Origin: an uncultured bacterium
GTDB lineage: Bacteria > Desulfobacterota_D > UBA1144 > Nemesobacterales > UBA2774
DNA: 64,000 nt
NCBI GenBank assembly: GCA_963825135.1
Contig: CAWGRW010000009.1
Coordinates: 64,001 to 128,000, forward strand
Direction: 5' to 3'
Below, piece after piece: positions 28,763 to 48,357 of this stretch (positions within the stretch are counted from its first letter, which is position 1; each line of letters opens with the position of its first letter). Below the pieces are notes generated by a model, which was not told where the DNA came from, did not search any database, and saw only the letters and a program-made list of their open reading frames with translations. A program made the translations under genes and the position numbers.

Positions 28763-30002
28763 TCACCCCGGCAACACATCATCCGCGGTCTCGCCCTTTC
28801 TTATTATCCTCGCCTTGCCTTCTTCTATAATTACTATCGGCGGGCGGGGGAATATGAACGCGGTCGATTGCGGGATGTTGTAGGCGCCGACGTTTTTTAC
28901 CACGAGCCTGTCGCCGGCTTTTAATTCGGGGAGCTCACATTTTCCGATTATGTCCGTCTGAAGACAGAGCGGCCCGTAAACCGTCGCCTCTCGCAAACCC
29001 CCTCCCCTTTCGTCAACGCACTCAACATCCTGAAACCTCCAGAAAGAAGTGGGAAGGATGTTTATGCCGCTATCGACGACTACGGCCCTGACCCCGCCCG
29101 CAAGCTCCTTCACGGCGACGACAGTAGTGACCAGGTGCACGGCGTCGCTTACGATCGCCCTCCCCGGCTCTAGTATCAGGAGCGGCGGGTCCTCTTTCCC
29201 GAATCCCTCCAATATAGGCCCGGTCACGGCTTCGACGTAGGGCGCGATCGAGCCGACCGTCGGGAACCCGCCTCCCATGTCGATGTACTTCATCACGGAC
29301 GCCGAACCGCTCCCTCATCTCGATCGAGAAGCGCGTCATCTCTTCTGCAGCCTTACGGTACGCGCGCGGGTCTTTCGGCCATATGAGTCTCACGTGCCTA
29401 GCCGGCATGCCCCCTTCCCCGTGGGGCTCGACTATGTAGCTCGTCAGGTGGACGTGTAGCCCGGCGATCCTGATCAGCTTATTCCGTGAAGCGCTCTCCA
29501 CGGCGCGCTCCGCCTCCCCCGATTCGATATTGAAGCCGAACCTGTCGGGCATCTGGTCTATGCCCGTCTCCATGCTCACTCTTAAGCCTATATCGACAGG
29601 GCCGCCATCTTCACGGGCGATCTCTTCGAGAAGTTCTATTTCCACCATATGGTCGGCGTTTATAAGGGCGCCTTCTTTTACGGACTTCCTCAGCTCTTCC
29701 TTCTTCTTATACGGCCCGTTCAAAACGATAGAGCTCCCGGGCACGCCCATCCTCCGCGCGATCTCGTATTCGAATCCCGAGGCGGCCTCCGCCCATAGGC
29801 CCTCGCAGTGTATGATCCCGAGTATGGCGGGGACGGAGTTTACCTTGTACGAGTATGCGGTTTCGATATGGGGATAGACGGAAGAAAACGCGGCCGTGAA
29901 CGCCCGGCAGTTATTGATTATCACCGAAGCCGAAGCGATGAAAATGGGCGAGCCGAATTCGCTTGCCAGATCGTCGATCGAAACACCGTCTATTTTATTC
30001 AT
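28763..30002 (-). CDS. Fold-type III PLP decarboxylase (LysA/ODC family; frameshift near 29297)
   Basis: YSYKVN, EAASGFE, NGPYK, RFG; after shift IDMGGGFP, EPGRA, GPLCLQTD, GAY. Confidence 0.88.
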
Positions 30003-30008
30003 CGCGTA

Positions 30009-30953
30009 TCAGGCAAACGTCATGAATTTCGATAAATATTTGAGACCCGAATCGGGGAGTATAACGACTATGCGCTCGCCCCTCCCGCGTGTGCGCGCAT
30101 ACTCTATCGCGCCCGCCATCACCGCGCCGCTCGAATCGCCCGCGAGTATGCCTTCTGACTTCACGAGGGCTTCAACCATTTTTAACGCCTCGTCCTCGTA
30201 AACCTGAATCACGTCGTCGATGTAATTGAAGTCGATAACGCCCGGAATGAAGTTCTTCCCTATGCCCTCTATGCTGAACTCCCCACCCTCGACCAGCACG
30301 CGCTTTTCGAGATAGTCCTTGAACACCGAGCCTCGCGGCTCGACGCCGATGATCCTCACGCCCCTGTTCATTTCCTTCAGATACCTGCCTATGCCCGTAA
30401 TCGTCCCCCCGGTCCCTATGCCGCAGACGACGGCGTCCACTTTCCCTTCCGTGTCCCTCCATATCTCCGGGCCCGTGGTCTTGTAATGGGCTTCGGGGTT
30501 GAGCGTGTTGAAATACTGGTTCACGTAGAACCCGCCCCTCTCGCGCGCTATCTTTTGAGCCACCTTGTAGCAGCTCCTCTCGTCGGAGGGCGGCAGCCCC
30601 CTCGGCGTAAGCACGACCTCCGCCCCGAAGAGCTTTATCGCGAGTATCTTCTCCTTGCTTATCGTCTCGGGCAGGGTGAATATGCACCTGTAACCCCTCA
30701 CCGCGCCCACGAGCGCGAACGCGACGCCCATGTTGCCCGACGTGGCCTCGACGATGAGGTCGCCCGGCTTTATGAGCCCCCTCGCCTCCGCGTCGTCGAT
30801 TATGTATTTCGCCACCCTGTCCTTGAAGCTCCCGCTCGGGTTATAGAACTCGAGCTTCGCGTAAACTTCGCTTCCGAGACCGCGGGCGAGCTTGTTCACC
30901 CGGACGAGCGGCGTGTTGCCGATGAGGCTTAAGACGTCCTCTGTTACGTTCAT
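30009..30953 (-). CDS. Cysteine synthase/cystathionine beta-synthase family PLP enzyme
   Basis: IGNTPLV, NPSGSFKDR, ATSGN, GIGTGGT, IEGIG. Confidence 0.93.
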   Translation of the reverse strand: MNVTEDVLSLIGNTPLVRVNKLARGLGSEVYAKLEFYNPSGSFKDRVAKYIIDDAEARGLIKPGDLIVEATSGNMGVAFALVGAVRGYRCIFTLPETISKEKILAIKLFGAEVVLTPRGLPPSDERSCYKVAQKIARERGGFYVNQYFNTLNPEAHYKTTGPEIWRDTEGKVDAVVCGIGTGGTITGIGRYLKEMNRGVRIIGVEPRGSVFKDYLEKRVLVEGGEFSIEGIGKNFIPGVIDFNYIDDVIQVYEDEALKMVEALVKSEGILAGDSSGAVMAGAIEYARTRGRGERIVVILPDSGLKYLSKFMTFA

Positions 30954-32338
30954 CCTTTCCCCTTTATCCTCCGCACTATGTCGCGCGCGCGGTCGTTATT
31001 CCTGCTCTCGAAAAACTTTACGACTGCCTCCCTGTACATGCCCGACCGCGCCTCGGCAATCGCCTTCGGCAGAGAGTCCCCGAGGTGCTCGAACGCCCAC
31101 GTGTCGGGCCTCGATATGTTGAGCCTTATGTAGCCGGTCGCCCCCACGTCGCCCAGCCCGTCGCCCGGATAAACGGCGACCCTCCGCTTGAAGAGCGCGA
31201 CGGTCAGCTCCTGCGCCGTGACCCCCGCGCCCGAGACGTCCAGCACCATCGAGAAACCGTAGTCGGGCCCGACCGGGATAGACACGCCGGGGTTCCCGGC
31301 GGCTATCTTTTTTACGAGTCCGTAATTGCGCCTGATTATGGCTTCCGACTCTCTGGCGTACGCCGTGTCTTTTATCGCCGCAAGCGCGCCGTGCTGAGCG
31401 ATGAGGTTCGTGTTTATACGCGTTAGCGCGACCTTCGACACGAGGCATGCCCTCATCACTTCCGGGTGTCCGGCGAGAAACCCTATCCTCACCCCGGCCA
31501 TGCCGTACCCGTGCGAGACGCTGAACGTCGAGACGACGTTGTCAGTATTCGTCTCCCCGTAAAGGGAGCTCATCGGGATGTGCAGGGAATCGGGGTTCAC
31601 CCTGTGCGTGCCGTGCGTGATGTCGTTTATTATCACTATCCCTTTAGCGCGCGCGGTCTCGATGAGCGCCAGGAGCTCTTCCTTCTTCTGCACCGTGCCG
31701 AAAGGGTTCAAGGGATCGCAGACGATCACCGCCTTCGTCCGCGCCGTGATTTGTTTCTCCACTTCATCAGGCATCATCCTGTAGCCGTTTCCGGGCCCTA
31801 GCGGAATCCTCACGGGCACGCCGCCCGCCATGAGTATCGACGAGGTGAAGTGAAAGTATCCGGGGTCGGTGATTATCACCTCGTCGCCGGGATTGATAAA
31901 AGTCTCGAGTGTGTAGGATATCGCGGCCTGGCTTCCCTCGACCCCTATCACCTCGAAAGAGCCCCCTCTCGGCCGTCCGAACTTTATTCCCGCGGCGGCT
32001 TCTCTCAGGGGATTTATCAGGTCGGGGGAATAGGGGTTAATGTTTTCACTGTTGGTGTTATTGCGCATCGCCTCGACCGCGCTCTCCGGGGGCCCCGCGA
32101 AGCAGGTCATCCATCCGAAGTCGGCCCACGTCCGGGGATCGAGGTCTATGCGGCCGTTAGCGTATATCTCCCCCGCGTCTAACCCGAGGATGTTTATCGC
32201 GTCCCTGTAGGACATGTAGTTCCACATCCCGTGCGGGCTCTCCATTACGGACCTCACCCTCGCGGACAACGCGCGCGGGAGGAATTCAGGACCCGATTCC
32301 CCGCCTTCCCATCCCAGTATGAACCTTTCTTTTCCCAT
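30950..32338 (-). CDS. Class I/II aminotransferase-fold protein with Lys-to-His substitution
   Basis: INPGDEVIITDPGY, PLNPFG, NDITH, FSVSHGYGMAGVRIG, YIRLN. Confidence 0.85.
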   Translation of the reverse strand: MGKERFILGWEGGESGPEFLPRALSARVRSVMESPHGMWNYMSYRDAINILGLDAGEIYANGRIDLDPRTWADFGWMTCFAGPPESAVEAMRNNTNSENINPYSPDLINPLREAAAGIKFGRPRGGSFEVIGVEGSQAAISYTLETFINPGDEVIITDPGYFHFTSSILMAGGVPVRIPLGPGNGYRMMPDEVEKQITARTKAVIVCDPLNPFGTVQKKEELLALIETARAKGIVIINDITHGTHRVNPDSLHIPMSSLYGETNTDNVVSTFSVSHGYGMAGVRIGFLAGHPEVMRACLVSKVALTRINTNLIAQHGALAAIKDTAYARESEAIIRRNYGLVKKIAAGNPGVSIPVGPDYGFSMVLDVSGAGVTAQELTVALFKRRVAVYPGDGLGDVGATGYIRLNISRPDTWAFEHLGDSLPKAIAEARSGMYREAVVKFFESRNNDRARDIVRRIKGKG

Positions 32339-32363: not shown

Positions 32364-33212
32364 TCAATTCCTCATCATCACTACCGCGTAAATACCGTAG
32401 GGGTCGAACGTGATTTTCGGGTCCCTGAAACCCGCCTCTACCGCCCACCCGATTACCTGCTCGACCGGGCGGAGATGCCATACGCACCTCTCCCCGTTCT
32501 GGTTACGGAGCGCTCTCGCTATTAGCTCGATCTGGGGGTTCTTCGTCTGCACGTTAAACAGCAGCGCGTCCGGGTTGAGTACGTCCCTGAGCTGGGAAAA
32601 GTGTTTCCGTATGAGCGCGTCGTCGTGGATTATCCCGTAGAGCCCGACCTCTATCACAAGGTCGGGCTTTTCGGCGATCGCCTTCAGGCTTTCCGTATCG
32701 AGCGCGTCCCCGAGCCCGAAAGAAACCCTGTCCGTAAGCCCGAGACGCCTGGCCGTCCTCCCGCTTCCGGCGAGCGCGGTCTCGCTTATGTCCCTGAGGA
32801 GCGCCCTCACCTCCGGGCCCGTCTGCCGGAGCACGTCGTAGAGGTAGTCGGCGTCCCCCGAGGCCAGGTCCGCTATGAACGCCCCCCCGCCGTCCCTCTC
32901 CGCCAGGTAGCTGAGTATCATGTTTTTCTGTATCTCTTTGACAGCTCTCCACGCCCTGCACGTAACTTGATTGAGGAACGCCTCGTCGAGTTTCCTGCCG
33001 ATGTAGAACCTCCCGCGCGGGGAGTTTTTATAGACGTAATTCATTATCATCCCCGAGTCGAAACCGTGCCTGCAGCCCGTCCTTATGCCGTCCGACAATT
33101 GTCCGACCGTTCCGAGGAAGAAAGAGACGAGCGCGAAGTACCAGCCCCGGGGCGAATACCGGGGAAGCGGTTTTTGCAATTCCTCGAAGCCCGGCATTTG
33201 GTTACGAAGCAT
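32364..33212 (-). CDS. Class I SAM methyltransferase (YnbC C-terminal/Methyltransf_20-like)
   Basis: LSDGIRTG...GFDSG...YVYKNSPRG, DLASG, GDAL, GLY, NPQIELIAR. Confidence 0.8.
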   Translation of the reverse strand: MLRNQMPGFEELQKPLPRYSPRGWYFALVSFFLGTVGQLSDGIRTGCRHGFDSGMIMNYVYKNSPRGRFYIGRKLDEAFLNQVTCRAWRAVKEIQKNMILSYLAERDGGGAFIADLASGDADYLYDVLRQTGPEVRALLRDISETALAGSGRTARRLGLTDRVSFGLGDALDTESLKAIAEKPDLVIEVGLYGIIHDDALIRKHFSQLRDVLNPDALLFNVQTKNPQIELIARALRNQNGERCVWHLRPVEQVIGWAVEAGFRDPKITFDPYGIYAVVMMRN

Positions 33213-33828: not shown

Positions 33829-34284
33829 TCAGTACATCTTTTTCAATATATCTATGATTTTTTCATCGCCCCCTGCGGGCGCTTCCCATTCCACCTGAAC
33901 GACCTCTACGCCCTGAGCCTCGAGAGCGTCCCTGAATATGTCGAGCCCGATGTTTACGGCCAGTATCTCCCGGTTGAATATGTCCCGCGATTCGCCCCCT
34001 GCACCCGTAGAGCCCGCTGAGATCATCTCCTCCATTGCGTCAAGCGCCTTTTCCGCCGCCTCATCCGAATCGGCTTCGACGACCATCACGAGGTCGCCGC
34101 CCCCGGCGCCCTTTATCCCGGGCGTCAGGAGCCCGGCGGATTCGAGCGCGAACCTGGCCTTGTCCGTAGCCATTACGGCGGTCGCCTTCTTCACCCCTTC
34201 CATCCCGCCCGCGGTCTTCGATATGCGCATCAAGCGGAGCGCGTCCTGAAAGTAATTCTTTTTGATCCTGAATTTAAGCGGCAA
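33829..34284 (-). CDS. Mini-FdrA: FdrA N-terminal domain fused to FdrA C-terminal tail
   Basis: TTG after AGGAG; IKKNYFQDALRLMRIS...AVMAT...DLVMVVEA, then VNIGLDIFRDALEAQGVEVVQVEWEAPAGGD. Confidence 0.8.
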   Translation of the reverse strand: MPLKFRIKKNYFQDALRLMRISKTAGGMEGVKKATAVMATDKARFALESAGLLTPGIKGAGGGDLVMVVEADSDEAAEKALDAMEEMISAGSTGAGGESRDIFNREILAVNIGLDIFRDALEAQGVEVVQVEWEAPAGGDEKIIDILKKMY

Positions 34285-34313: not shown

Positions 34314-34700
34314 CTATGCGATTACGTATTCGATAGGGCACGGGTTCATAATGGTCCTGCTCACAAAACAGTATTTTTTCGCCTCGTCGATGAGCCCTTC
34401 CAGGGTCCGGGTCGGGACCGTGCTCATGACTTTAACGACGATCTTCGTAAATAGAAAGTTCTTCGTGTCCTTCTCCCCCTCGACCTCGACCTCCATATCC
34501 TCGACCTCTATCTGCCTCTTGCCGGCGGCGTATATGAGCGCCATGCAGAAGCAGGAAGCGAGCGACGCGAGGAAAAGCTCTGTCGGCATCATGCCCGTAT
34601 CGTCGCCGCTGAAATCCACAGGCTCGTCCGTCAGCACCCTGAACTGCCGGGCTCTCACGTCCACCTGATACCTCATCTTCCAGAATGCCTTTACGCTCAT
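34314..34700 (-). CDS. OsmC family protein
   Basis: TDEP...GDDTGMMPTELFLASLASC...KYCFVSRTI. Confidence 0.9.
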   Translation of the reverse strand: MSVKAFWKMRYQVDVRARQFRVLTDEPVDFSGDDTGMMPTELFLASLASCFCMALIYAAGKRQIEVEDMEVEVEGEKDTKNFLFTKIVVKVMSTVPTRTLEGLIDEAKKYCFVSRTIMNPCPIEYVIA

Positions 34701-34701
34701 A

Positions 34702-35907
34702 TCATCTCCTCACCACAACCGTCTCTTTTTCGCCGATGCCGGTACCGTTCAGTATGCCTGTGTAGAACACGACGTGCCCGCGGGCGGCGTTCTCCCAGCT
34801 GTATTCCTCCGCTGTCTCTCTCCCCTTAGAAGCGAGCGCGAGCCCGAGCTCTCCGTTCTCCGCGAGCTCGATGATCAGGGACGCGATACGATCAGAGTCC
34901 ATCGGGGACACGAGGAGCGAATTCTCCCCGTCCCTCAGATACTCGGTCATGGGCTCTATGCCCGAAGCGATAACGGGCACGCCCGAGGCGAGGGCCTCCA
35001 AAACGACCAACCCCCACCCTTCCCTGACCGACGGGAAAACGAAGACGTCCGCCGCGTGATAGAGTCGGGCGACCTCGTCCTCCGATACGCTGCCCGGTAT
35101 GAATATATCCTTCCCGACGGCGAGCCCGAGCCTCTCCGCCCCGGAGAAGAACTCTTCCCTGTACGCCCTGTAATCGAAAAGCGTCTCACCGCCCCCGATG
35201 ACCCAGACGAGCCTCTCGCCTTTCTCTTGAAAATGAGACCTGGCAGCGTGAAATGCCGTGAGAGACGTCAGCGTGTTTTTCCTCGGCTCTATGCCGCCTA
35301 TGCTCAGCATCACCCTCGCGCCCCCGAGCGAGAATTTCTCCTTATACGTTTCTTTAGAGCCCTCGTCCGGGAGCGGGCGGAACCTCAGCGTGTCCACTCC
35401 GTTCCTGATGACGGTCGAGCGGAGAGAGTACGCCGACAACAGCTCTCTCTCCCATGCCTCGCTTACGGTGATTAAATAATCGGGCTCGATAATGCTTTTT
35501 AGCTGGCATTCGATTAAGGCCTCGGAAGTGAAGTCGTCTATATGGTGGACGGTCCTCGCGAAGGACCCGATCAGGCCCCCTTGTCTCAGGTTCAACAGCG
35601 CGTTTGCCGAAATGCAGTCCTCGGCGTGGAATATATCGTGCGCGAGGGCGTGCGAGGAGAGGTATTCGGTGTATATATTTATGTAGTCCCTGATTTTTTC
35701 GTCCATGCCCGCGTATTCCTTTTTCGGACACGGGATGAGCGTATGGGGGACCGATACGTCCCTGAAAAAATTTCCCCCCGAGGATAGCGAGTACACGCGG
35801 ACGGCGTGTCCCAGGCGCGCGAGGCTTTCGGCGAGGCAGAGTGTGTGCACCACGCCGCCCCTGGGCTTGGTAGAATATGTGAGGAGCGCCACGTCAAGCG
35901 ATTTCAT
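34702..35907 (-). CDS. MSMEG_0565-family glycosyltransferase (GT4 fold)
   Basis: YSTKPRGGVVHTL, HAEDCISANAL, RTVHHIDDF, GGIEPRKN, ETLFDY, EGWGLVVLEA. Confidence 0.9.
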   Translation of the reverse strand: MKSLDVALLTYSTKPRGGVVHTLCLAESLARLGHAVRVYSLSSGGNFFRDVSVPHTLIPCPKKEYAGMDEKIRDYINIYTEYLSSHALAHDIFHAEDCISANALLNLRQGGLIGSFARTVHHIDDFTSEALIECQLKSIIEPDYLITVSEAWERELLSAYSLRSTVIRNGVDTLRFRPLPDEGSKETYKEKFSLGGARVMLSIGGIEPRKNTLTSLTAFHAARSHFQEKGERLVWVIGGGETLFDYRAYREEFFSGAERLGLAVGKDIFIPGSVSEDEVARLYHAADVFVFPSVREGWGLVVLEALASGVPVIASGIEPMTEYLRDGENSLLVSPMDSDRIASLIIELAENGELGLALASKGRETAEEYSWENAARGHVVFYTGILNGTGIGEKETVVVRR

Positions 35908-36889
35908 TGAGCGCCTCCGTTTCGAGCATAGACCCGAGATACCTCACCCCGTAATAAATACCGACAGCCATGTCGGCCCCCGTGGTCGCCCCCATGGCGA
36001 GGAGCTTCTTCGCGGAGGCGGCCGTATCTTCGGGCCCTCCCGCGACGAGGCTCACGATCAGGCCGGTCGCCGCAAGAGGCCCCTCTCCGCGCCGGGCGTC
36101 GTCTATCAGTCCCCGGCTGTATATGGTGGTCTTCACTTTCGAGAGTCTGAAAATTTCATTTCCGACTTTCTTAAAAAACCGGGCGGCGCTCCCGTCCGTG
36201 GAAAATGCCTTTCCCGCGAAGCAGAGGCTCATGAGCAGGCCCGCGAGGAAATCGTCGCACGAGGGGGTGAGCCCCGGCCCGAGCCCGAGTATCGCCCCTG
36301 CCTTTTCGGAGACGGCGGCGAGATCGCCCGAGTAGAGGCCCCACATTAGCTGCTCTATGTGAGGACGCGCCCTTTCGGCCACGCTCTCCCCCCGAGGCTC
36401 GAGGAACACCTTCATCGGCCCCCGGAGGTCCACGTCCTCGAGAAGCGGGACGAGCCCTTCCCGTCCGGGGAACGTATAGATCACGTCCCGCAGTATCCTC
36501 AGGTTAAACGCGACCTCGTCCGGGTTTATAGGCCGGCTCCGCTTCGGAAGCCCCTGCTTTTTCAGTACGCGCGCATTTGAAATATTTACAGCCACAGCGC
36601 CCGAGGTGAGCGTCTTTCCATCGAAGAGCACGCGCTCCCCCGTCTCAAAGCCGAGGGATTTCATTGACGCGCTCTCGTGATTTTTTATCAGGATTGAATA
36701 GGGGCTTACGAAATCTTTATTCAGTATTAATTTCAGCAGCTCGTTCTTTCCGCCCGATATATAGACCGCGTGATCGAAAACGCCGTGAATCTCGCTTCCA
36801 TCGCCTGATTTCCCGAGGGCTTTTAACGCCTTCTGCCCCACCGACTCCGCTTCGAGCGAAATTCTGTTGACGCCGCCTGACTTTCTCAT
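35894..36889 (-). CDS. DUF2877 / YlbF (AllH)-like protein
   Basis: LGLGPGLTPSCDDFLAG and MGATTGAD motifs. Confidence 0.85.
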   Translation of the reverse strand: MRKSGGVNRISLEAESVGQKALKALGKSGDGSEIHGVFDHAVYISGGKNELLKLILNKDFVSPYSILIKNHESASMKSLGFETGERVLFDGKTLTSGAVAVNISNARVLKKQGLPKRSRPINPDEVAFNLRILRDVIYTFPGREGLVPLLEDVDLRGPMKVFLEPRGESVAERARPHIEQLMWGLYSGDLAAVSEKAGAILGLGPGLTPSCDDFLAGLLMSLCFAGKAFSTDGSAARFFKKVGNEIFRLSKVKTTIYSRGLIDDARRGEGPLAATGLIVSLVAGGPEDTAASAKKLLAMGATTGADMAVGIYYGVRYLGSMLETEALNEIA

Positions 36890-36978
36890 TATATAAAGCT
36901 CTATCGGGTCCCGTAACCGCGCGGGTATACCGTCCGCCCGCGGCTCGAATAACAAATCAGAACGCGGACGCACGCCGG

Positions 36979-40051: not shown

Positions 40052-40543
40052 CTATACAGTCCAGGTGCTGAACATCATAGCCCCGGCTCTGTGGTGCTCG
40101 ATAACGATGTCGAGTATATCCGTCGGGTGGATCGGTATTACGCCCTCGAGGAAGTTCGACTCGTTCTGACCGAGGAGAGCCGCTGCCGAGAAACGGCACG
40201 CGAGGACCTTAATGCCTTCGCTAATCATCCTGTTGACGAGGTTCGGGTAGAGCTGTATGCCGGCGCCGTAGCCGTCGTCGCCTACGTTCGGCCAGCCCCT
40301 GTATACCGGGATGCCCGACGCAGGGCCGTAGAACAGCACGGTCGTTTCGTACCCCTTCTTCTTCGTCCTTATCGCCGTCAGCATGTTGATGCCCGCGACC
40401 GAGCCCTCGTAAGGGACCGAGTGAATGAGGAATAACGCCTTCTCGCCCGGTTTCGCCTGGTGGTCCGGATAGAGCTTCTCCTCGTAATTAACTAATGCTT
40501 TACCCTTCTCGGGCCTGTCCGCTTTAACTCTGTTTACAGCCAT
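40052..40543 (-). CDS. MSMEG_0572/Sll0783-family DsrE-like protein (NitB-like)
   Basis: YEEK...PGEKAL...EGS...KGYET...YGP...RGWP...ACRF...TWTV. Confidence 0.88.
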   Translation of the reverse strand: MAVNRVKADRPEKGKALVNYEEKLYPDHQAKPGEKALFLIHSVPYEGSVAGINMLTAIRTKKKGYETTVLFYGPASGIPVYRGWPNVGDDGYGAGIQLYPNLVNRMISEGIKVLACRFSAAALLGQNESNFLEGVIPIHPTDILDIVIEHHRAGAMMFSTWTV

Positions 40544-40734
40544 TGTAAATTACCTCCTGTAATTTATTTAGAATCAGACCCCGGAGCTCGCGCCCCGGGC
40601 TTTTTTCTCTATGTTGTGGTCAGATTTACTCCCAACTCCCTTATCCTCATCATATTATAAAACATCAAACTTAATCAATCGAATCGGCATATCTCCCGCC
40701 GGCGGGCCGCTTCCGAAACACGCCCGCGTAAAGC

Positions 40735-41673
40735 TCACTGCGTTATCTCCGTCCCGCCCTTTCCGTTGATGGCCGCGTCCATCTTCTCGGCCGAGGTGAT
40801 GACAGCCTTCTTCCCGCCCGCGCGGAGGAAGCTTATGGCGGCTTCGATCTTGGGCCCCATGCTCCCCGGGGGGAAATGCCCTTCGGCGTGATACCGCTCG
40901 GCTTCTTCGAGCGTGATCCTGGAAAGGAGCTTCTCCTCGGGCTTCCCGAAATTTATCGCGACCTTCTCGACCGGAGTAATGAGGACGAGTATCTCCGCCC
41001 CTATGAGCGTCGCCAGCTTCTGCGCGGCGAAATCTTTGTCGATTACGGCGGCTACTCCCTTGAGCTTCCCCTTCTTGTCCTTTAACACGGGTATGCCGCC
41101 CCCGCCGCAGGCGATCACGACGTACCCCCTGTCGGCCATTTCCGAGATCTCCCTCTTCTCCACTATATCTATGGGCCTGGGCGAGGGCACGACGCGCCTG
41201 TATCCGCGCCCCGAGTCCTCCTTCATCACCCAGCCCTCCCTCTTCCGGAGGTTCCTGCTCTCCTCCTCGGTGAAGAACGGGCCTATGAACTTCGTCGGGT
41301 TCTGAAACGCCGGGTCGTCTTCGGAGACCACGACCTGCGTCACGAATGCGACGGTCGGGTTCGACATCTTCTTTTCCGTGAACAGGTTCCGTAGCCTCTG
41401 CTCTATCATGTACCCGATCTGCCCCTGGGTCATGGCGTTACAGACATCGAGTGGCATGGGCGGTATCGACGAGGACAGGCTCTCCTGCTGCATGAGGAAA
41501 TTCCCCACCTGCGGGCCGTTGCCGTGCGTTATCACGACCCTGTATCCCATATCGAAAAGGCCCATGAGCTTCCTGCACATCTTATCGGTCTTCATTATCT
41601 GCTCTACGTAAGTGCTCTTGCCTTTATGGTCCATCAGGGCGTTACCCCCGAAGGCTACTACCGCTGTCTTCAT
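40735..41673 (-). CDS. arcC: Carbamate kinase
   Basis: AFGGNAL, THGNGPQVG, QGQIGY, PTKFIG, RRVVPSP, VIDKD, GSMGPK. Confidence 0.95.
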   Translation of the reverse strand: MKTAVVAFGGNALMDHKGKSTYVEQIMKTDKMCRKLMGLFDMGYRVVITHGNGPQVGNFLMQQESLSSSIPPMPLDVCNAMTQGQIGYMIEQRLRNLFTEKKMSNPTVAFVTQVVVSEDDPAFQNPTKFIGPFFTEEESRNLRKREGWVMKEDSGRGYRRVVPSPRPIDIVEKREISEMADRGYVVIACGGGGIPVLKDKKGKLKGVAAVIDKDFAAQKLATLIGAEILVLITPVEKVAINFGKPEEKLLSRITLEEAERYHAEGHFPPGSMGPKIEAAISFLRAGGKKAVITSAEKMDAAINGKGGTEITQ

Positions 41674-43246
41674 AATATCCCCCTGTCTGTTTCTCCCTCT
41701 CCCCCGGCCGTTATCCAGCCCGCCACCCTCGACGCGAGGGCATTGGTCGGAAAGACCATCACGCCTTCTTTCCTGAGCTTCTCTTCCTGGTCACGGAGTC
41801 CCTGGGGGTCCCGCTCCGTGCCGCACACGTGAGCGACGTACGCGACAGAGCGCCCCTTTTTCCGGGCGGCCGCCTTCGCCGCCCTTATCGCCGGCAGGAG
41901 GTCCCCCGCCGGGTCGGGGCTCGCGACGTGGCCGAGCACGACGTCGAAGAGTATCACCGCGACTTCGGGCTTCGCGGCTTCGCTCAGGAGCCTTTCGCTC
42001 CGGAGCGTCGCGTCTATCATCGGGTGCGGGCGTCCGACCGTGAACTCCTCCTCCCCCAGATCGACGCACGTGTTGCCTACGCTGACGTTTGAGTCCTTCA
42101 GCTTGTTTTTCTTGTTTAGAGGCGCGTTCGAATATACGTCCCCGAGCGACAGGGTGAGTATCTGCTGCGCCTCGTAGCAGAGCGTACCTCCCGAGAATAG
42201 CCCCCTCAGGTAACGCTGATTGCGCTTCCGCGAGCGGACGTATTTCCCGGCCTGCCTCTTCCAGCTCTTTCCAGCGCCGGGGGCGTGCTTCTTAATGCCC
42301 CCGTTTACGAGGGCGAGCGCCGAGAAAGCGGCTTCTTCGAGAGTCGATACGAGCTTTATATTCTCGTCTTCCGGCAGGCGCAGACCGTGCCCCAGGAAGC
42401 ATACGACGGCGGGCTTTCCGGTCTCGCCTATCGCGGCGAGTATCTTTTCCGCCACATTTTTCGAAGGCGGCTTCGAGACGACGAGCAGCGCCTTCGTATT
42501 ATTATCGCTACCCAGTATCCTGAGCGCTGCGAGCGTCATTATCCCGCCCACTTCCCCCGACAGGTCCCTTCCCCCGACCCCTATAGCGTGCGTGATGCCG
42601 GAGCCCAAGTTGCTAATGAGGCTCGTCACCTCCTGCATGCCCGTGCCGGCGGCGGCTATCACACCTATCGGGCCCCTCTCCACGACGTTTGCGAACCCGA
42701 GCCCCGTGCCGTTTATTATCGCCGTGCCGCAGCCCGGGCCCATGACCAGGAGCCCGCGCCCGGACGCCCTTCTTTTTAGCTCTATTTCTTCTTCTACCGT
42801 TACGTTGTCGCTGAATAAAAATGTGTGAAGCCCCTTTTCTATGGCCTTCGAGACCTCGAGCTTCGCGTACTCCCCCGGCACCGAAATGAGCGCGATATTC
42901 GCCGCCGGAAGGACGTTCAACGCGGTATCGAGCCCCTTCACCGCCTCGGCCGTCCCCGCCCGCCGGGCGCCCTGAGGGGCAAGGAGCGAATCGAGCATGC
43001 CCATCGCTTCGCTGCGCCTTTGACTCCGTCTCGGCCTCGACCGCGACGATGAGGTCGTTCGCGCTCGCCTGCTCCGGGGCCTCCGTGATGAGCCCGGCTT
43101 CCCTGAGCATTTTCAGATTGGCTTCGGTCGCCATTATCGCCGAGGCCTTTTTTATACCGGGCAGAGCCGGAGAGCTTCCGGCTGAGCTGCATGAGCTTTA
43201 GCGAGTCCTGGTAATGATTCTTTTTAATTATGCTGGCTATCGCCAT
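41670..43246 (-). CDS. fdrA: FdrA (AllF)-like acyl-CoA synthetase-fold protein (frameshifts near 43165 and 43010)
   Basis: MAIASIIKKNHYQDSLKLM / MATEANL...NDLIVAVEA / ISVPGEYA, FSDNV, MGPGCGT, GLFSGGTLCYEA, GRPHPMID, GTERDPQ across three frames. Confidence 0.88.
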
Positions 43247-43308: not shown

Positions 43309-44604
43309 TCAGGCCGCGAGCTTATGTCTCTGCCCATACGCCGTGACCGCCTTTACGAAACATTCGTAAGGCGCCCTCACTATCCCCGCTCCTATCTGCC
43401 CCGCGCCCGAGCTCTTATGCACGACGGCGCTGTTGATGCTGGGCAGTATCCCCGTCTCGACCACTTTCCTGAGGTCTATGCCCGTGGGCGTGCCCTCGAA
43501 GTCGAGTGCCGGTATTCCGAACTTCGGGTTTTTAAGAGTCGTTATGAGCTGCATTCTCTTCGTGATGCTTATAGATTCCCGGACGCCCCCGCCCGCGAAC
43601 GCGGCCATTGAAGGCGCGGCCGCTATGGCGAACCCGCCTAATCCCATGGTCTCGATTATGGAGCTGTCCCCTATATCGGGCGCGCCGTCCTCCGCGCTGT
43701 ATCCCGGATTGTAGAGCGCGTCGAGGAGATATGGCGCCGGGGCGGTGAACCACGCGTCGCCGAGCCCGCTGACTTTTATGCCGAAGTCGGTCCCGTTCCG
43801 GGACATGGCCGTAACTATGGTCGAATCCTCTATCCCGTGCGCGGCGTCCATGGCGAGCTTGCACGCGGTCATAGTGATGTTGAGGAAGAAGTGGCTGTTC
43901 CCCGCTATGAACCTGTAGACCTCGAGCGCCCTCTCGCGGGGCAGGTCGAGCTTGAAGAGCGTCTCGGCGATTATCTTGAGGAATATGTTCGTCGACGCGG
44001 CGTGCCTGTTGTGGCACTCGTCCCCCATCTGTATGCCCTGGGCGAGTATGCTCCACACGGGTATTCCGCCCGTCATGCCGAGGGCCTTTTTCATTACGGG
44101 GGCGAGCACGTCCCTCATCCACCTGAGCCGCTTTATCGTCTCTTCCCCCACGGAGCCGAACCAGAGGACCTTGCCTCCGCCCTCGTTGAACGTCGAATAG
44201 ACGGTCCTGCCGTGAGTTATGTCCTTCGTCACTATGACGGGCATCGAGGGGGAGATTATCCCCGTCATCGGGCCCACGGCGTCGTGATAGTGATTGGGAG
44301 AAAATTTTATTTTTTTCGATTTGATCAGCGCCTCCGCGCCCTTGTCGTCATGGGCGAGGCCCTCGAATATGAGCGCGCCCCTGACGGCCCTCTTCATCGC
44401 GTCGCACATCCTCTGCCATGTGACGGGAGGCCCCGCGTGGAGTATCGTGTCCGGGGTCATCCCCGGAACGGACGAGAGCGCGGTATCTACGCCCGACAGC
44501 ACGGGCTCCGTCGAGAGGAGCCTCTCTAACGCGCGCGCGTTTGACTCCCTTATGCGGTCGCCCATGTATCTCTCTACGGGCTTTTCGGCCCCTTTAATAG
44601 ACAT
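43309..44604 (-). CDS. DUF1116 / YlbE (AllG)-like protein
   Basis: ILHAGPP, AVGPMTGIISPSMP, MGDECHNR, HFFLN, RNGTDFGI, DIGDS, GQIGAG. Confidence 0.92.
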   Translation of the reverse strand: MSIKGAEKPVERYMGDRIRESNARALERLLSTEPVLSGVDTALSSVPGMTPDTILHAGPPVTWQRMCDAMKRAVRGALIFEGLAHDDKGAEALIKSKKIKFSPNHYHDAVGPMTGIISPSMPVIVTKDITHGRTVYSTFNEGGGKVLWFGSVGEETIKRLRWMRDVLAPVMKKALGMTGGIPVWSILAQGIQMGDECHNRHAASTNIFLKIIAETLFKLDLPRERALEVYRFIAGNSHFFLNITMTACKLAMDAAHGIEDSTIVTAMSRNGTDFGIKVSGLGDAWFTAPAPYLLDALYNPGYSAEDGAPDIGDSSIIETMGLGGFAIAAAPSMAAFAGGGVRESISITKRMQLITTLKNPKFGIPALDFEGTPTGIDLRKVVETGILPSINSAVVHKSSGAGQIGAGIVRAPYECFVKAVTAYGQRHKLAA

Positions 44605-44628: not shown

Positions 44629-45216
44629 TTATGATGGCGGGACTGCCAGTATCCAAAGTAATTTGGCCTTGCTCTGTCCCACGTTTCTCCATTTGTGTTC
44701 GAGGAGCGTCCTGAAGTGGATGCTGTCTCCGGGGGCGAGCGTGTACGTTTTATCGTACACCTGGAACTCCACTTTCCCGTTGATGCAGTAAACCAGCTCC
44801 TCTCCCCTGTGCTTCATCGGCGTCTTGCCGCTCGACGCCCCGACCTCGAGCACCGAGTACGCGGCGGTCATGATGAAATCCCCGTACTTCGTGGCCGATA
44901 TGCCCTGGAGCTCGAGCCCTTTTTTAAACGTGAGTATCGGCTCGCGCTCATTCGCCGAAACAAAAACCACGTCGCTGTCCTCTTTTTTTTCTTCTATGAA
45001 ATGGCTCACCTTTTTTCCGAGCGCGTCCGAGATCTTCATCATCGTCGTGATGGTGGGGGTTATGCCGTTTGACTCGATCTTGTGAATCGCCGCGGCCGAG
45101 ACGCCCGATTTATTCGCGAGATCCTTGAGCGAGAGACCCCTCTCGGTACGCATGTTTTTTATCTTCTCGCCGAGCCTCGATACTATGTGATCTATCCGAT
45201 ATTTCTCAGCCGCCAT
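44629..45216 (-). CDS. XRE-family HTH plus cupin transcriptional regulator
   Basis: LSLKDLANKSGVSAAAIHKIE...HRGEE...GDSIHF...HKWRN. Confidence 0.92.
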   Translation of the reverse strand: MAAEKYRIDHIVSRLGEKIKNMRTERGLSLKDLANKSGVSAAAIHKIESNGITPTITTMMKISDALGKKVSHFIEEKKEDSDVVFVSANEREPILTFKKGLELQGISATKYGDFIMTAAYSVLEVGASSGKTPMKHRGEELVYCINGKVEFQVYDKTYTLAPGDSIHFRTLLEHKWRNVGQSKAKLLWILAVPPS

Positions 45217-46192
45217 TTTTCACCTGTGGGGTATTTACGGGATTCACGCCTATTAGAGGCTCTTCGTCAAAATTCCAGAACATCGCTTTTTCGCCGCCGT
45301 CCGTGAAGTAAACCCTGCTGTCGTTTATGACCCGGCCTATCGTTTCGCATACGAGGCCCCCGTCCCTGAACCTGTCCTTTATATATTGCGTCTTATCCGG
45401 CCGGGACGAGATGATGAACCCGTAACTCGGGAATGTCAGGAGCCACTTTTGGAGCGGCACGTCCCCGGGCGCAGGGATGCGGTCGAGATAGATTTCGGCC
45501 CCGGCCTTCGAGCCCTCGAGCAGCATGAGCGCTGAGCCTATGAGCCCGGCCATGCTCACGTCCTTTGCGGCGTCGGCGAGCCCCTCTTCCGCGAGCCGCG
45601 GAAGTATTTCGAGCTGCCGCCTGAGCTCGTCTTCGGCGAGCGCGCTCGAGGAGTCCCAGAAATTAAACGCCGGGTAGAACCTGCCTTCGAGGTCGGCGGC
45701 GAGAATAATGTCGTCGCCTTCGAGTGCGCCGAAGCCCGAGAGCAGGCGCTCGGCCTTTCCCAATATAAAAACAGACAGGGAGCCGGATTCGGCGTCTAAC
45801 GTCGTGTGCCCGCCCACTACAGGGACGCCGTAACGCCCGGCGTTGTCCCTTATGCCGCGCAGCACCTCTCCGGCGCTCTCCAGGTCTTTAGAGAAGAGCA
45901 CGTCCACTAGCGCGACGGGCCTCCCGCCCATCGCGTATATATCGTTCACGTTCGTGAGCACGGAAGTCCTGCCCGCGAGGTACGGATTCGAATCGAGGAG
46001 CGGCTGGTACACGCCTTCAGCGGCGAGCAGCAGATATCCGTCCCCGGATTTTATGGCCGCCGCGTCGTCGCCCAGAAGTATGTCGTTCCCGTCTATGCGG
46101 GGCGCGAGCGGGAAGTACCGCCAGAGGCCCGCGAGGTACTGCTTCTGAACGAGCCTGGTTGAGGATTTGAGTGTCCGGATCAGATTCTGCAA
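45206..46192 (-). CDS. sll0787-family AIR-synthase-related protein (NitF-like)
   Basis: GDDAAAI, LLAAEG, NVNDIYAMGGRP, VGGHT, AKDVSMAG, FPSYGF. Confidence 0.9.
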   Translation of the reverse strand: MQNLIRTLKSSTRLVQKQYLAGLWRYFPLAPRIDGNDILLGDDAAAIKSGDGYLLLAAEGVYQPLLDSNPYLAGRTSVLTNVNDIYAMGGRPVALVDVLFSKDLESAGEVLRGIRDNAGRYGVPVVGGHTTLDAESGSLSVFILGKAERLLSGFGALEGDDIILAADLEGRFYPAFNFWDSSSALAEDELRRQLEILPRLAEEGLADAAKDVSMAGLIGSALMLLEGSKAGAEIYLDRIPAPGDVPLQKWLLTFPSYGFIISSRPDKTQYIKDRFRDGGLVCETIGRVINDSRVYFTDGGEKAMFWNFDEEPLIGVNPVNTPQVKNGG

Positions 46193-46211: not shown

Positions 46212-46703
46212 TTATGCGGAGTGGAGGTCCGCTTCCATCAGCTGGTGCGTGACGCCTTCGTATTCGACCGGGTCGCCCGCGGGCTTCCAGTCGAGCCTCT
46301 TGAAAAAATTCACGTTCTGAGGCTGCACGTACGCGAGGAATTTTTTGCATCCCCTCGATTTGACCGTCTCTACGGCGAACCTGACGAGTCCCGAGCCCAC
46401 GCGGCCGTTCCTGTAGCCGTTGGCCGCCGTGAGTCTCCCGCCGTACCACGTGTCGTTACCCGTCGTATAGCACCTCACTCCCCCTACCATGACTCCGTCC
46501 GGGCCCTTGAGCGCGATTATGTGTATCGCCCCCCGGTCGCGCTCGTCCACGTCCGTGCCGCTGAATATCTTCTGCTCTTCGACGAATACCGCGTGACGGA
46601 GCCTGAAATAATTACCGAGCTCTTCCCCGTTCTCCGCGATCTTGAATGTGTATTCCCCGGATTTTCGAATGTGCGCTTCCCCAACCTGTTTGAATGTGTT
46701 CAT
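46212..46703 (-). CDS. MSMEG_0567 N-terminal-type GNAT protein (NitE-like)
   Basis: LRHAVFVEEQKIF...DERD...WYGGRL...GCKKFLAYVQPQNVNFF...HQLMEADL. Start placed at ATG 46703 because GTG 46748 overlaps the -10. Confidence 0.88.
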   Translation of the reverse strand: MNTFKQVGEAHIRKSGEYTFKIAENGEELGNYFRLRHAVFVEEQKIFSGTDVDERDRGAIHIIALKGPDGVMVGGVRCYTTGNDTWYGGRLTAANGYRNGRVGSGLVRFAVETVKSRGCKKFLAYVQPQNVNFFKRLDWKPAGDPVEYEGVTHQLMEADLHSA

Positions 46704-46746
46704 CCGCGGTCCCGGAACACCTGCCGGCCCGTCCACTATATTGGAC

Positions 46747-46775
46747 ACTATATCAACTTTAGTAAATCAAGTCAA
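46747..46775 (-). promoter_or_regulatory. Sigma70 promoter of the 19-gene cluster
   Basis: TTGACT (46775-46770)-17 nt-TATAGT (46752-46747). Confidence 0.75.
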
Positions 46776-46858
46776 GAATATTCCGGGCGCGGAAGAACGC
46801 GGTGCGCCCGTCATTCGGAGCCCCGTGTTTAATGAGGATCAAGCGGTTTGCGGACGCC

Positions 46859-46887
46859 TTGACTAGCGGGTATTAATTTCCTATAAT
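46859..46887 (+). promoter_or_regulatory. Divergent sigma70 promoter
   Basis: TTGACT-17 nt-TATAAT. Confidence 0.8.
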
Positions 46888-46916
46888 GTACGGAGCATAT
46901 ACTATAGGAAAACAAC

Positions 46917-47291
46917 ATGCCCATCTATGAATACCACTGTCCCAAGTGCCGGAAGGAAGTAAGTATTTTTTTCCTGACCGTGTCGGAGGCCCTGGAAAGA
47001 AAGCCGGCGTGCCCCGAATGCGGGAGTAAAAAGCTCGCGCGGGTCATCTCGAATATCTCTACGGTATCGAAAGCGGACAGCGCCAAAGAGACAGGCGTCC
47101 CGAAGGCCGGAGCCCCGGGTGAAGACACCGCTTCCCTCGCCCGCATCATGCGCGAGTCGAGCCGGAAGTCGAAGACCGGCTACGGGGAGCAGTTCAGCGA
47201 GGTAGCGGCCCGTCTCGAAAAAGGGGAGCCGTCGAAATCGATAGAGAAGAAGCTCAGGAAAAGGGTCGGCGAGACAATGGAAACTCATTGA
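46917..47291 (+). CDS. FmdB-family zinc-ribbon protein
   Basis: MPIYEYHCPKC...CPECGS. Confidence 0.88.
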   Translation: MPIYEYHCPKCRKEVSIFFLTVSEALERKPACPECGSKKLARVISNISTVSKADSAKETGVPKAGAPGEDTASLARIMRESSRKSKTGYGEQFSEVAARLEKGEPSKSIEKKLRKRVGETMETH

Positions 47292-47292
47292 C

Positions 47293-47399
47293 GGGGGGCA
47301 GTCCACGGGGCGGATAAGGGGGACAGACGAGCGGGGGCAAACAGGGGGCGGATAAGAGGAACAGGCGGGCGGGGGCAAACAGGGGGCGGACAATGGGGG
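47293..47399 (+). repeat. G-run tract with an exact 22-bp direct repeat
   Basis: Eight G4-G6 runs; GCGGGGGCAAACAGGGGGCGGA at 47331 and 47369. Confidence 0.85.
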
Positions 47400-47499
47400 A
47401 GAATGACCGGCGATAATTAAGCGGGACAGATAGACAAAGACCCGGGGCGGTTAGATAAAGACAATGGGTCAAAAAACAAAGACAAAAGGAGACAGTCCG

Positions 47500-48357
47500 A
47501 TGAGCAGCATAGTAAAAAGAAAGAAGATTTTCGATAACCATAGTCACATAGGGCCTGTGCCCGGCTTCGCTTACTACGGCCTGCCTCAGGCGGTGAAACC
47601 CACGACGGATTACGATAAGACAGAGGACTATATAAAAGGTATGGACAAGCACGGTGTCGACCGCGCCCTGGTCATGTCGAATTACGGCTACCCGGATTCG
47701 GCGCAGCCGTTCACGCTGAACCCGCTAGTCGCGGACAGCGCGCAGAAAACGGACAGGCTCATGGGGGCCATATGGGTCTCGGCGCTTCCCAAGGACAAGG
47801 AGCGCACGACCGAGGCGCTCAAGCTCATAGGCGAAAAGGGGCTCGTAGCGTTAAAGACGACCTGCCTCCTCGGAGGGACGTTTAACCCCGAGCAGTGGGA
47901 CAAGGAATCGGAAGAGCTCTGGACGATGATCCTCGACGCGGCCGCGGCTCACGACATGCCGTTCCACATACACACGAGCCCGGGCGGGGGGTCGGACATC
48001 GACGGCGCGCTCGCTCTTATCAGGAAATTCGGAAAGAAGGCAAAGATACACGTCGTCCACATGGGCGGCGGGGTGAGCGGCCATATCAAGTTCGTCCCCA
48101 GGTTCTTCGAGCTCGTGGAAGAGGGCTATCAGGTCTATACGGACTCGTCCTGGGCCGTAGGGTTCGGCTCGACGTGGCTCCTCGAGGAGATAGAGCGGAG
48201 AGGCGTCGGAGGCGACCGCTTCCTGTTCGGCTCCGATATACCGTGGAGCGATTTCGCGTCCGAGTACTGGAAGATAGAAGGCGCCGACGTATCGGAAAAA
48301 CTGAAAGCGGATATATTCTGGAACAACGCCGAGAAGCTCTACGGCAAGTTCTGGTGA
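47500..48357 (+). CDS. Amidohydrolase_2 family metal-dependent hydrolase
   Basis: DNHSH, HIHT, VHMGG, YTDSS, FGSDIPW, NAEKLY; AAGGAG RBS. Confidence 0.9.
   Translation: MSSIVKRKKIFDNHSHIGPVPGFAYYGLPQAVKPTTDYDKTEDYIKGMDKHGVDRALVMSNYGYPDSAQPFTLNPLVADSAQKTDRLMGAIWVSALPKDKERTTEALKLIGEKGLVALKTTCLLGGTFNPEQWDKESEELWTMILDAAAAHDMPFHIHTSPGGGSDIDGALALIRKFGKKAKIHVVHMGGGVSGHIKFVPRFFELVEEGYQVYTDSSWAVGFGSTWLLEEIERRGVGGDRFLFGSDIPWSDFASEYWKIEGADVSEKLKADIFWNNAEKLYGKFW

Follow-up and report, generated by a model that had tools for sequence, protein, structure and literature searches.

The question raised by the locus described here is which pathway could unite the core of a Nit1C gene cluster with the genes of a carbamoyltransferase and a carbamate kinase. 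The locus lies in a window of 64,000 nucleotides (the whole stretch of DNA that was analysed; contig CAWGRW010000009.1, positions 64,001 to 128,000) from an uncultured member of the Dadabacteria. According to the open reading frame (ORF) list and profile scans, a run of 19 co-directional genes extends along the minus strand from 46703 to 28763, in which the genes of AllF, AllG, AllH and carbamate kinase are interleaved with five Nit1C/MSMEG_0565-0572 genes, all five scoring above curated cut-offs. Together with two plus-strand genes, 21 genes were assigned to the cluster. A preliminary description of this DNA had counted 19 co-directional genes and five stop/start overlaps (45206/45216, 41670/41673, 35894/35907, 33202/33212, 30950/30953); all 19 were found on the minus strand, and the overlaps agree with the ORF list. 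The gene range it had given also contains the plus-strand FmdB-type zinc-ribbon protein and amidohydrolase genes, which are part of the system. The cluster may, as a tentative answer that we place somewhat ahead of its alternatives while still doubting it, represent one inherited pathway for recovering nitrogen and energy from a cyano- or carbamoyl-type C1 unit carried on a small thiol. The genes of the cluster are listed below in window coordinates (PLP, pyridoxal phosphate; SAM, S-adenosylmethionine).

46212..46703, minus strand: GNAT acetyltransferase, NitE/MSMEG_0567 N-terminal family (TIGR04045, 143 over a cut-off of 68)
45206..46192, minus strand: AIR-synthase-like (AIRS-like) ATP-binding protein, NitF/sll0787 family, without a conserved cysteine (TIGR04049, 357 over 321)
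44629..45216, minus strand: regulator with XRE-type helix-turn-helix and cupin domains (PF01381, PF07883)
43309..44604, minus strand: AllG/YahG (DUF1116) homolog (PF06545, 288 bits; 45% identical to E. coli AllG and 47% to YahG)
41670..43246, minus strand: FdrA/AllF homolog, succinyl-CoA-synthetase-alpha-like (intact in relatives, about 520 aa)
40735..41673, minus strand: carbamate kinase, the sole copy found in the genome by tblastn (TIGR00746, 404 over 358)
40052..40543, minus strand: DsrE-like protein, NitB/MSMEG_0572/Sll0783 family, with invariant Cys116 (TIGR04044, 170 over 110)
38785..39918, minus strand: radical SAM protein, NitD/MSMEG_0568 family, with Cx8Cx2C and a C-terminal GCxxCGxCS (TIGR04043, 337 over 304)
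37332..38681, minus strand: flavoprotein resembling CoA-disulfide reductase/NADH oxidase, redox cysteine kept, NAD(P)H motif GxGxxG lost
36979..37227, minus strand: 82-aa protein containing a hydrophobic stretch, the flavoprotein's predicted partner (no Pfam or NCBIfam match)
35894..36982, minus strand: AllH/YahE (DUF2877) homolog (PF11392, 65.6 over 25)
34702..35907, minus strand: GT4 glycosyltransferase, MSMEG_0565 family (TIGR04047, 396 over 260)
34314..34700, minus strand: OsmC-like protein with two near-invariant cysteines (PF02566)
33829..34284, minus strand: 151-aa FdrA-N-like protein, a second FdrA N-terminal domain plus a segment of ~45 aa
33202..33768, minus strand: 188-aa four-helix protein, ferritin-like, whose putative ligands are non-standard (His-rich) (Atlas; alignment; PF00210 on the distant relative P0261)
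32364..33212, minus strand: SAM-dependent methyltransferase (PF12147, 171 over 21)
30950..32338, minus strand: class I PLP-fold protein with His replacing the PLP lysine (alignment)
30009..30953, minus strand: CBS/CysK-like PLP enzyme, found in no version but that of the Dadabacteria (0/80 metagenome loci)
28763..30002, minus strand: LysA-like PLP decarboxylase (about 412 aa in relatives)
46917..47291, plus strand: FmdB-type zinc-ribbon protein, within the operon in other phyla (TIGR02605)
47500..48357, plus strand: metal hydrolase of the amidohydrolase-2 family, positional replacement of the nitrilase (PF04909)

NitB, NitD, NitE and NitF occur together in the cluster with the optional MSMEG_0565 glycosyltransferase, and the earlier assignment of the GNAT, AIRS-like, DsrE-like, radical SAM and GT4 genes to these families holds at the TIGRFAM cut-offs. 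A cysteine of the DsrE-like protein is invariant in the alignment, and the radical SAM protein carries a second cysteine motif besides Cx8Cx2C. The other defining members were absent from the genome (94% complete), as the preliminary description had stated for the cluster: NitG/MSMEG_0570 (TIGR04042) gave no match, and the best score for the flavoprotein NitH/MSMEG_0569 (TIGR04046) was 20 bits against 498, both families being absent also from 42 loci outside the Dadabacteria (0/42 each). The Nit6803-family nitrilase NitC (TIGR04048) was above cut-off in 0/120 genomes of the phylum and 0/18 other genomes, with Synechococcus elongatus passing as positive control. Five carbon-nitrogen hydrolases are encoded elsewhere in the genome; three were scanned, and two nitrilase-like ones scored 233 and 205 against a cut-off of 502.6. 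Nitrilase-like genes were found in 94 of the 120 phylum genomes, with or without the cluster, none above cut-off, and a Nit1C nitrilase located elsewhere was thus rejected as an explanation of the Nit1C half.

Two functions suggested by the AIRS-like protein were not supported either. HypE-type enzymes possess a C-terminal cysteine carrier; the AIRS-like protein has no conserved cysteine in 15 rows and reaches 18.6 against 252 with TIGR02124, which speaks against a HypE-type carbamoyl dehydratase. A selenium pathway, with the AIRS-like protein as SelD, was not supported, given the same absence of a conserved cysteine and the lack of any SelA found in the genome. In several related loci (L077:13883-15490, L115:14273-15325, L119:14138-15127, L124, L127, L172, L184, L195, L207, L209 and L224) the AIRS-like gene, still within the operon, is encoded on the other strand, tail-to-tail with the GNAT gene and head-to-head with the next one, at gaps of a few to 23 bases; such an arrangement may be a non-contiguous operon. 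Other variations of the core were a pair of identical DsrE-like genes on either side of the amidohydrolase (L082:9420-9908 and 10861-11349) and a second, divergent radical SAM gene of the same superfamily near an anammox cluster (L129:8441-9562; 200 bits, below cut-off). In a plasmid collection, the canonical Nit1C radical SAM protein matched 514 records, 373 of them from Klebsiella.

The place of the nitrilase seems to be taken by the amidohydrolase. A search of the genome collection with the amidohydrolase alignment gave at least 79 loci (574 of 600 rows confirmed among the matches listed), and 42 not labelled Dadabacteria were annotated. The amidohydrolase adjoins NitB/NitD (the DsrE-like and radical SAM genes), in or next to the nitrilase slot, in 40/42, and NitC is present in 0/42. 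The order in anaerobe loci is NitB-amidohydrolase-NitD, and the canonical order NitB-nitrilase-NitD was seen in 3/3 plasmid records opened; the plasmid collection gave no match to the amidohydrolase. In 12 Dadabacteria loci, of which 11 belong to family f7 and one to f4, the gene lies inside the operon after the kinase. Judged by its position, the amidohydrolase is a replacement of the nitrilase. Binuclear amidohydrolases carry His-x-His, Lys, His, His and Asp at the ends of strands 1, 4, 5, 6 and 8; H-x-H, Lys, His, His and Asp are invariant in an alignment of 16 rows and fall on the matching predicted strands. The model of a relative (P0235) is a barrel with a predicted local distance difference test (pLDDT) value of 90, for which the best fold match, 3cjp (Z 22.0, root-mean-square deviation 3.0, 231 residues aligned), is tied with 3irs, the searches indicating a general amidohydrolase barrel only.

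The second half of the cluster resembles the carbamoyl module of E. coli, in which AllFGH is an oxamate carbamoyltransferase that works catabolically with the carbamate kinase AllK (PMC11326118). Its reaction converts oxalurate, supplied by allantoinase and ureidoglycolate dehydrogenase, with Pi to oxamate and carbamoyl phosphate. FdrA, DUF1116, DUF2877 and carbamate kinase had been recognised among the core genes previously, and PF06545, PF11392 and TIGR00746 indeed pass their cut-offs; with NF004760, FdrA reaches 419 of 433 on its frameshifted C-terminal piece. The HPM histidine of FdrA is kept in 103/103 rows, and the key motifs of AllG and carbamate kinase are kept in their alignments (all of these rows include repeated loci). 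The ~45-aa segment of the 151-aa protein has its E. coli counterparts at the C-terminal end of AllF and the N-terminal end of YahG. The reported lack of allantoin genes also stands: in this genome the best allantoinase score is 229 against 358 (TIGR03178), the ureidoglycolate dehydrogenase family AllD (PF02615) has no match, and allantoin genes elsewhere were thus dismissed as an explanation of the AllFGH half. In an AllG tree of 46 rows, 40 cluster-linked rows stand on one side of a 100/99 branch and six others (E. coli AllG, YahG and four second copies) on the opposite side; the tree is unrooted, the E. coli rows are long branches, and filtering had removed one further second copy (L159), rows below 75% coverage and rows with stops. 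Orthology of the cluster-linked AllG with E. coli AllG was not apparent from these sequences. One Dadabacteria cluster contains a second, divergent carbamate-kinase-like gene (L047:6686-7747), and an anammox locus has a formate/nitrite-type channel between OsmC and AllG (L068:13741-14583).

Whether the two halves belong together can be judged from their distribution, for the locus might also hold two or three independent modules merely placed side by side under nitrogen or redox control. Among 120 Dadabacteria genomes, the DsrE family was found in 51 and AllG in 53; 50 have both, four have one (fragmented assemblies) and 66 have neither, and 9 of the 36 genomes of one genus possess DsrE, AllG and the ferritin-like gene, the same nine in each case. 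Although related genomes are not independent of one another, this genome-by-genome match of presence and absence is the pattern of genes gained or lost as a unit. In all 20 relatives' loci fetched first, the FdrA, kinase, DsrE and radical SAM genes are arranged as in the window, to the extent that the contigs cover them, and nine and then five further loci agree. The co-localisation extends to other phyla: DsrE and AllG are above cut-off on one contig in 18/18 genomes outside the Dadabacteria, an AllF, G or H gene lies within the fetched flank in 33/42 loci, and the interleaved genes occur in four or more orders. A radical SAM tree of 39 rows has the same main groups as the AllG tree. Independence might be suggested by a second promoter-like site that divides the gene run, by the tail lying apart from the core in some f7 genomes, and by the 15-17 kb between AllG and DsrE in three sulfate-reducer-type genomes; against the interleaving, the matched presence and absence, the 18/18 genomes and the agreement of the trees, it is largely refuted and appears very improbable.

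Four variants of the cluster were distinguished. Variant A is the Dadabacteria version. Variant B (Chloroflexota, Marinimicrobia and deltaproteobacterial loci) has the CoA-disulfide-reductase-like flavoprotein, a homolog of the 82-aa protein, the glycosyltransferase and the coenzyme M genes xcbA-E. Variant C (Desulfovibrio-type, anammox and some others) often has the radical SAM gene fused to GNAT, a flavin adenine dinucleotide (FAD) protein with a CCG protein and, often, an SsuA-family importer; no glycosyltransferase was seen in its loci. Variant D comprises metagenome loci found via distant ferritin-like proteins; of the 172 confirmed, the best 80 were kept, and among these 80 loci, many of them short, the methyltransferase occurs in 64, OsmC in 61, PLP and glycosyltransferase genes in 38 each, FdrA in 26, the kinase in 16, the flavoprotein in 15, the LysA-like gene in 11 and the amidohydrolase in 10, with no CBS, Xcb or nitrilase gene, and other cluster genes are present in all 26 loci that measure 4 kb or more. 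A protein of ~200 aa in variants B and D matched no named family. In the radical SAM tree three canonical NitD sequences group with variants B and C (95/82), which hints at an ancestral nitrilase-free form; it is a hint only, because the root rests on one very long branch.

A link to thiols comes from the genes that accompany the cluster in other phyla. Among the linked genes, XcbA, ComA and XcbD pass their cut-offs, while XcbC and XcbE fall just or well below; one small genome has only xcbA, D and E. ComA was above cut-off in 10 of the 18 non-Dadabacteria genomes, in eight of these no further than about 12 kb from the DsrE gene, and five of the eight genomes without ComA have an SsuA-family ABC importer in the cluster (both binding proteins scanned pass TIGR01728). 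In one sister locus (L099), XcbA follows the glycosyltransferase and FdrA-N genes, in the position of the ferritin-like gene of the window, and the tail methyltransferase is present in none of the clusters of the 18 genomes. Because of this distribution of ComA, importer and tail methyltransferase, synthesis of coenzyme M, uptake of the sulfonate type and the ferritin-like/methyltransferase/PLP tail seem to substitute for one another.

The class I PLP protein of this tail has His in place of the PLP lysine in 25/25 rows and in 18/18 readable rows from metagenome loci, as is known for the dehydratases ColD and E1 (PMC8987622). Its family (30950-32338) comprises 982 proteins at E <= 1e-60 among 8000 scored, the His being checked in part, and may represent a new family of elimination enzymes. 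A route from lanthionine to cysteamine (CBS, LysA-like protein, PLP lyase) was considered for the tail and is weakened by the counts in variant D.

A second link to thiols is provided by redox proteins, as a candidate thiol/disulfide oxidoreductase is encoded in every variant examined. The flavoprotein keeps YSPCG in 96/96 rows and GxGxxG in 2/96, and scores 266 against 579 with the CoA-disulfide reductase model TIGR03385. The 82-aa protein belongs to no named family (Atlas recognition 1681, weak). A model of its complex with the flavoprotein scored 0.84 against 0.35 for the best control, reaching a mark attained by 116/157 solved and 2/215 mismatched pairs; the runs share at least 80% of contacts, the partner has pLDDT values of at least 81, and the interface lies at residues 177-192 of the nucleotide domain. 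The modelling supports binding of the 82-aa protein to the flavoprotein. In the anaerobe version, with its FAD and CCG proteins, the best model for the latter is TfrB of the CoM/CoB thiol:fumarate reductase (258 of 385, below cut-off).

These thiol-linked genes bear on another possible pathway, a catabolism of ureides in which thiols have no part. The amidohydrolase would open a cyclic ureide or thioureide, an FAD/CCG or flavoprotein step would yield an oxalurate-like N-acylurea, AllF/G/H and the kinase would act as in E. coli, and the Nit1C core would remove sulfur or make a cofactor. Such a pathway would employ the known AllFGH chemistry (PMC11326118), and in nitrifiers allFGHK genes have been described next to biuret hydrolase, with no allantoin genes accompanying them (PMC12625717). 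The GlcD-like FAD protein that follows FdrA in anaerobes agrees with it, as do the invariant residues of the amidohydrolase, which fit the binuclear set of cyclic amidohydrolases. It leaves unexplained, however, the linked coenzyme M operons, the sulfonate-type importers and the conserved single-cysteine flavoprotein; the cluster AllG stands on its own branch apart from the allantoin AllG, and no ureide transporter was found in the annotated Dadabacteria loci. Ureide catabolism is therefore considered unlikely.

The thiol-dependent pathway proposed here would proceed as follows. The Nit1C core (the DsrE-like protein as a putative sulfur carrier, radical SAM, GNAT and AIRS-like proteins) together with OsmC would load a C1-N unit onto sulfur, for example as R-S-CN. 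The amidohydrolase might add water or remove NH3 and stop at an S-carbamoyl thiol, R-S-CO-NH2, whereas the classical nitrilase would continue from this stage to NH3 and CO2. AllF/G/H could then phosphorolyse the S-carbamoyl thiol to carbamoyl phosphate and free thiol, a reaction of thioester phosphorolysis to which the succinyl-CoA-synthetase-alpha fold is suited, and carbamate kinase would convert carbamoyl phosphate to ATP, NH3 and CO2. The flavoprotein and its small hydrophobic partner would re-oxidise the thiol without NAD(P)H. The cyanolysis of disulfides is among the known chemistry on which the scheme draws. The thiol would be coenzyme M in clusters with xcb genes or a sulfonate importer, and in Dadabacteria the ferritin-like, methyltransferase and His-PLP genes, with the glycosyltransferase, may make or modify a substitute.

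The preliminary description had proposed an undescribed pathway in which a C1-N unit passes through carbamoyl phosphate. This proposal withstood the tests run on it, and such a passage is a sound though putative reading; the amidohydrolase as replacement of the nitrilase and the thiol/disulfide theme had been missed, and the choice between catabolism and synthesis had been left undecided. The direction leans towards catabolism because CarB is present, no urease, cyanase or AllD was found in this genome, and AllFGH/AllK is catabolic in E. coli (PMC11326118); with CarB in the genome, carbamate kinase is not needed for making carbamoyl phosphate. The sigma-54 GAF activators that flank several variants, as NitA flanks Nit1C, were counted towards the same direction.

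In the opposite direction, the cluster would serve biosynthesis. A reversed carbamate kinase would supply AllF/G/H for transfer of the carbamoyl group to an acceptor, and the AIRS-like protein would activate or dehydrate it in a HypE-like manner. From there the radical SAM, GNAT, glycosyltransferase, methyltransferase and PLP enzymes would assemble a small molecule that contains sulfur and is glycosylated, for instance a redox-buffer thiol or a cofactor, whose working redox state the flavoprotein would maintain. The majority of the enzyme classes present are biosynthetic, the GT4 enzyme resembles MshA/BshA-type families (below cut-off), and the second cysteine motif of the radical SAM protein is accompanied by a weak LipS2 match. 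The His-for-Lys PLP enzymes are of the ColD/E1 dehydratase type (PMC8987622), the gpr genes of M. smegmatis give peroxide resistance and work as a unit (PMC6039565), and two CMD/AhpD-like genes flank the locus. Nevertheless, the glycosyltransferase is missing from the anaerobe loci and from one canonical record, the tail varies between variants while the set of hydrolase, AllFGH and kinase is constant, carbamoyl phosphate is already supplied by CarB, and HypE is the weakest model matched by the AIRS-like protein, with no cysteine conserved. Biosynthesis thus appears rather unlikely, although it deserves serious attention.

Several observations weigh against a catabolic pathway on a thiol. The counts given above include close kin and repeated loci. 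Glycosyltransferases, methyltransferases, GNAT and radical SAM proteins are usually biosynthetic. The window genome itself has no coenzyme M genes (no PF02679 match, and no XcbA or ComA match by tblastn at 1e-10); ComA is above cut-off in 4 of 120 Dadabacteria, where it is 25-29% like the linked type without being adjacent to the cluster; and in two anammox genomes both ComA and a recognised SsuA-type importer are lacking at the locus. No solved relative of the amidohydrolase exceeds 20% identity, and the nearest folds are uncharacterised proteins, decarboxylases and hydratases. The only characterised substrate of AllFGH is an N-acylurea, oxalurate, not a thioester (PMC11326118), and Pseudomonas NitC hydrolyses a 2-hydroxynitrile by a thiol-free route (PMC11049912). 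Finally, gpr of M. smegmatis raises NADPH (PMC6039565), an effect that is not to be had from a flavoprotein lacking an NAD(P)H site.

The proposal might be extended to a pathway of many phyla in which cyanide or a related C1-N compound, carried by coenzyme M or a substitute thiol, is oxidised and energy is conserved by phosphorolysis of an S-carbamoyl thioester, with a thiol oxidase that has a small subunit and is independent of NAD(P)H. It would be ancient, and the classical Nit1C would be its simplified descendant, in which a nitrilase discards the energy. In this full form the idea is speculative and has rather poor prospects. If it were true, coenzyme M would have a role outside methane and alkene metabolism, and Dadabacteria would possess a new low-molecular-weight thiol.

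The regulation of the cluster is suggested by three promoter-like sites.

46747..46775, minus strand: sigma-70-type main operon promoter, TTGACT-17-TATAGT, TG-extended, with a conserved spacer box (10/12; kept in 12/12 aligned loci)
46859..46887, plus strand: divergent promoter-like site for the zinc-ribbon and amidohydrolase genes (11/12; the AGTCAA hexamer at the opposite end invariant)
40649..40678, minus strand: second promoter-like site, upstream of the DsrE gene in a conserved gap; an invariant ribosome-binding site, GGAGGT, comes after it

A single sigma70 promoter had been described for the gene run. The main promoter is real, to judge by its conservation in all aligned loci, but the site ahead of the DsrE gene is present in most of the same 12 loci, and because of it a single promoter and co-transcription are not established. 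The spacer of the main promoter (46753-46769) holds a CTAAAGTTGATA-like box, almost invariant in the 12 loci, which may be the operator of the XRE-cupin regulator. The probable start of the GNAT gene is the ATG at 46703, since the GTG at 46748 overlaps the -10 box.

Two genes are interrupted in the window. The fdrA gene has two single-base insertions (+1 frameshifts near 43166 and 43011) and the LysA-like gene has one (near 29298), all absent in 3/3 congeners. The extra bases of fdrA are missing also from contigs of related populations in four public runs, so these frameshifts are probably assembly errors; the rows of that comparison did not cover the LysA-like insertion. Decay into pseudogenes was rejected, as the frameshifts are absent in relatives and split genes outside the cluster amounted to 1 of 40 tested, a small sample. 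Between the zinc-ribbon and amidohydrolase genes (47300-47400) there are short G-rich direct repeats, and one related contig skips this stretch. The CMD/AhpD-like genes, one of them fused to SnoaL (24627-25424 and 49265-49837), a GMC oxidoreductase (26866-28683) and a 2-oxoglutarate-Fe(II) oxygenase (48498-49100) flank the cluster and are mostly not kept beside it in relatives. Further out lie two neighbouring DUF7453 ORFs, possibly one split gene (50737-52042), and a P-type ATPase with a fused hemerythrin domain (52686-55016).

A full-text literature search, with subscription journals largely outside its coverage and supplements unread, gave no paper that joins Nit1C genes with fdrA or carbamate kinase, and the nitrilase-free combination is unpublished as far as searched. 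The analysis adds the apparent alternation of thiol supply between three routes, the loss of the NAD(P)H motif from a flavoprotein with a predicted small subunit, the PLP enzyme with His for Lys, the AllG branch of its own and the proposal of a specific, assayable intermediate. Nit1C, a gene set associated with nitrogen starvation, has been known since 2005; Pseudomonas requires it to grow on cyanide, and M. smegmatis to keep its redox balance. The exchange of the nitrilase for an amidohydrolase and a carbamoyl-phosphate module, with linked synthesis or uptake of coenzyme M, narrows the intermediate to a few compounds for which assays with single purified enzymes are feasible. The function of the AllFGH family would extend beyond oxalurate, and an unrecognised route to nitrogen and energy would be indicated in Dadabacteria, sulfate reducers, anammox bacteria, Chloroflexota and Marinimicrobia.

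Among known systems, the closest is Nit1C (Podar et al. 2005, PMC1199592), equivalent to nitBCDEFGH of Pseudomonas, sll0783-0787 of Synechocystis and gpr (MSMEG_0565-0572) of M. smegmatis (PMC6039565, PMC7815647); its chemistry is still termed obscure (PMC7815647). NitB, NitD, NitE, NitF and the optional glycosyltransferase of the window are 38-43% identical to the Agrobacterium copy, and in both systems a hydrolase, a small protein and a flavoprotein accompany the core. In the window, however, the amidohydrolase, the 82-aa protein and the CoA-disulfide-reductase-like flavoprotein occupy the places of NitC, NitG and NitH, and AllF/G/H, carbamate kinase, OsmC and the ferritin-like/methyltransferase/PLP tail are added. 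As the three defining features NitC, NitG and NitH fail, the system is, by its gene content, a sister system rather than a member of Nit1C.

With AllFGH/AllK and yahDEFG-yahI of E. coli the window shares all three subunits and the kinase. The identity to the E. coli all and yah counterparts is 41%/42% for the intact FdrA of a relative (G003) and 39%/45% for the kinase, and AllH is 29% identical to its E. coli counterpart over 133 aa. The window differs in lacking the allB/allC/allD context, in the scattering of the subunit genes among Nit1C genes and in the extra gene with a second FdrA N-domain and linker segment. The bacterial coenzyme M pathway XcbA-E (PMC9457059) is encoded within the cluster in Chloroflexota, in Marinimicrobia and at two sister loci of deltaproteobacteria, whereas it is absent from the window and its family, where ferritin-like, methyltransferase and His-PLP genes take that place. 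CoA-disulfide reductase/NADH oxidase (PDB 6ruz, 6pfz and 3cgb) shares its fold family and the single redox cysteine with the flavoprotein of the window, in which, in contrast, the NAD(P)H motif GxGxxG is replaced by one of A-T-P-L-G type and a dedicated small partner is predicted on the nucleotide domain.

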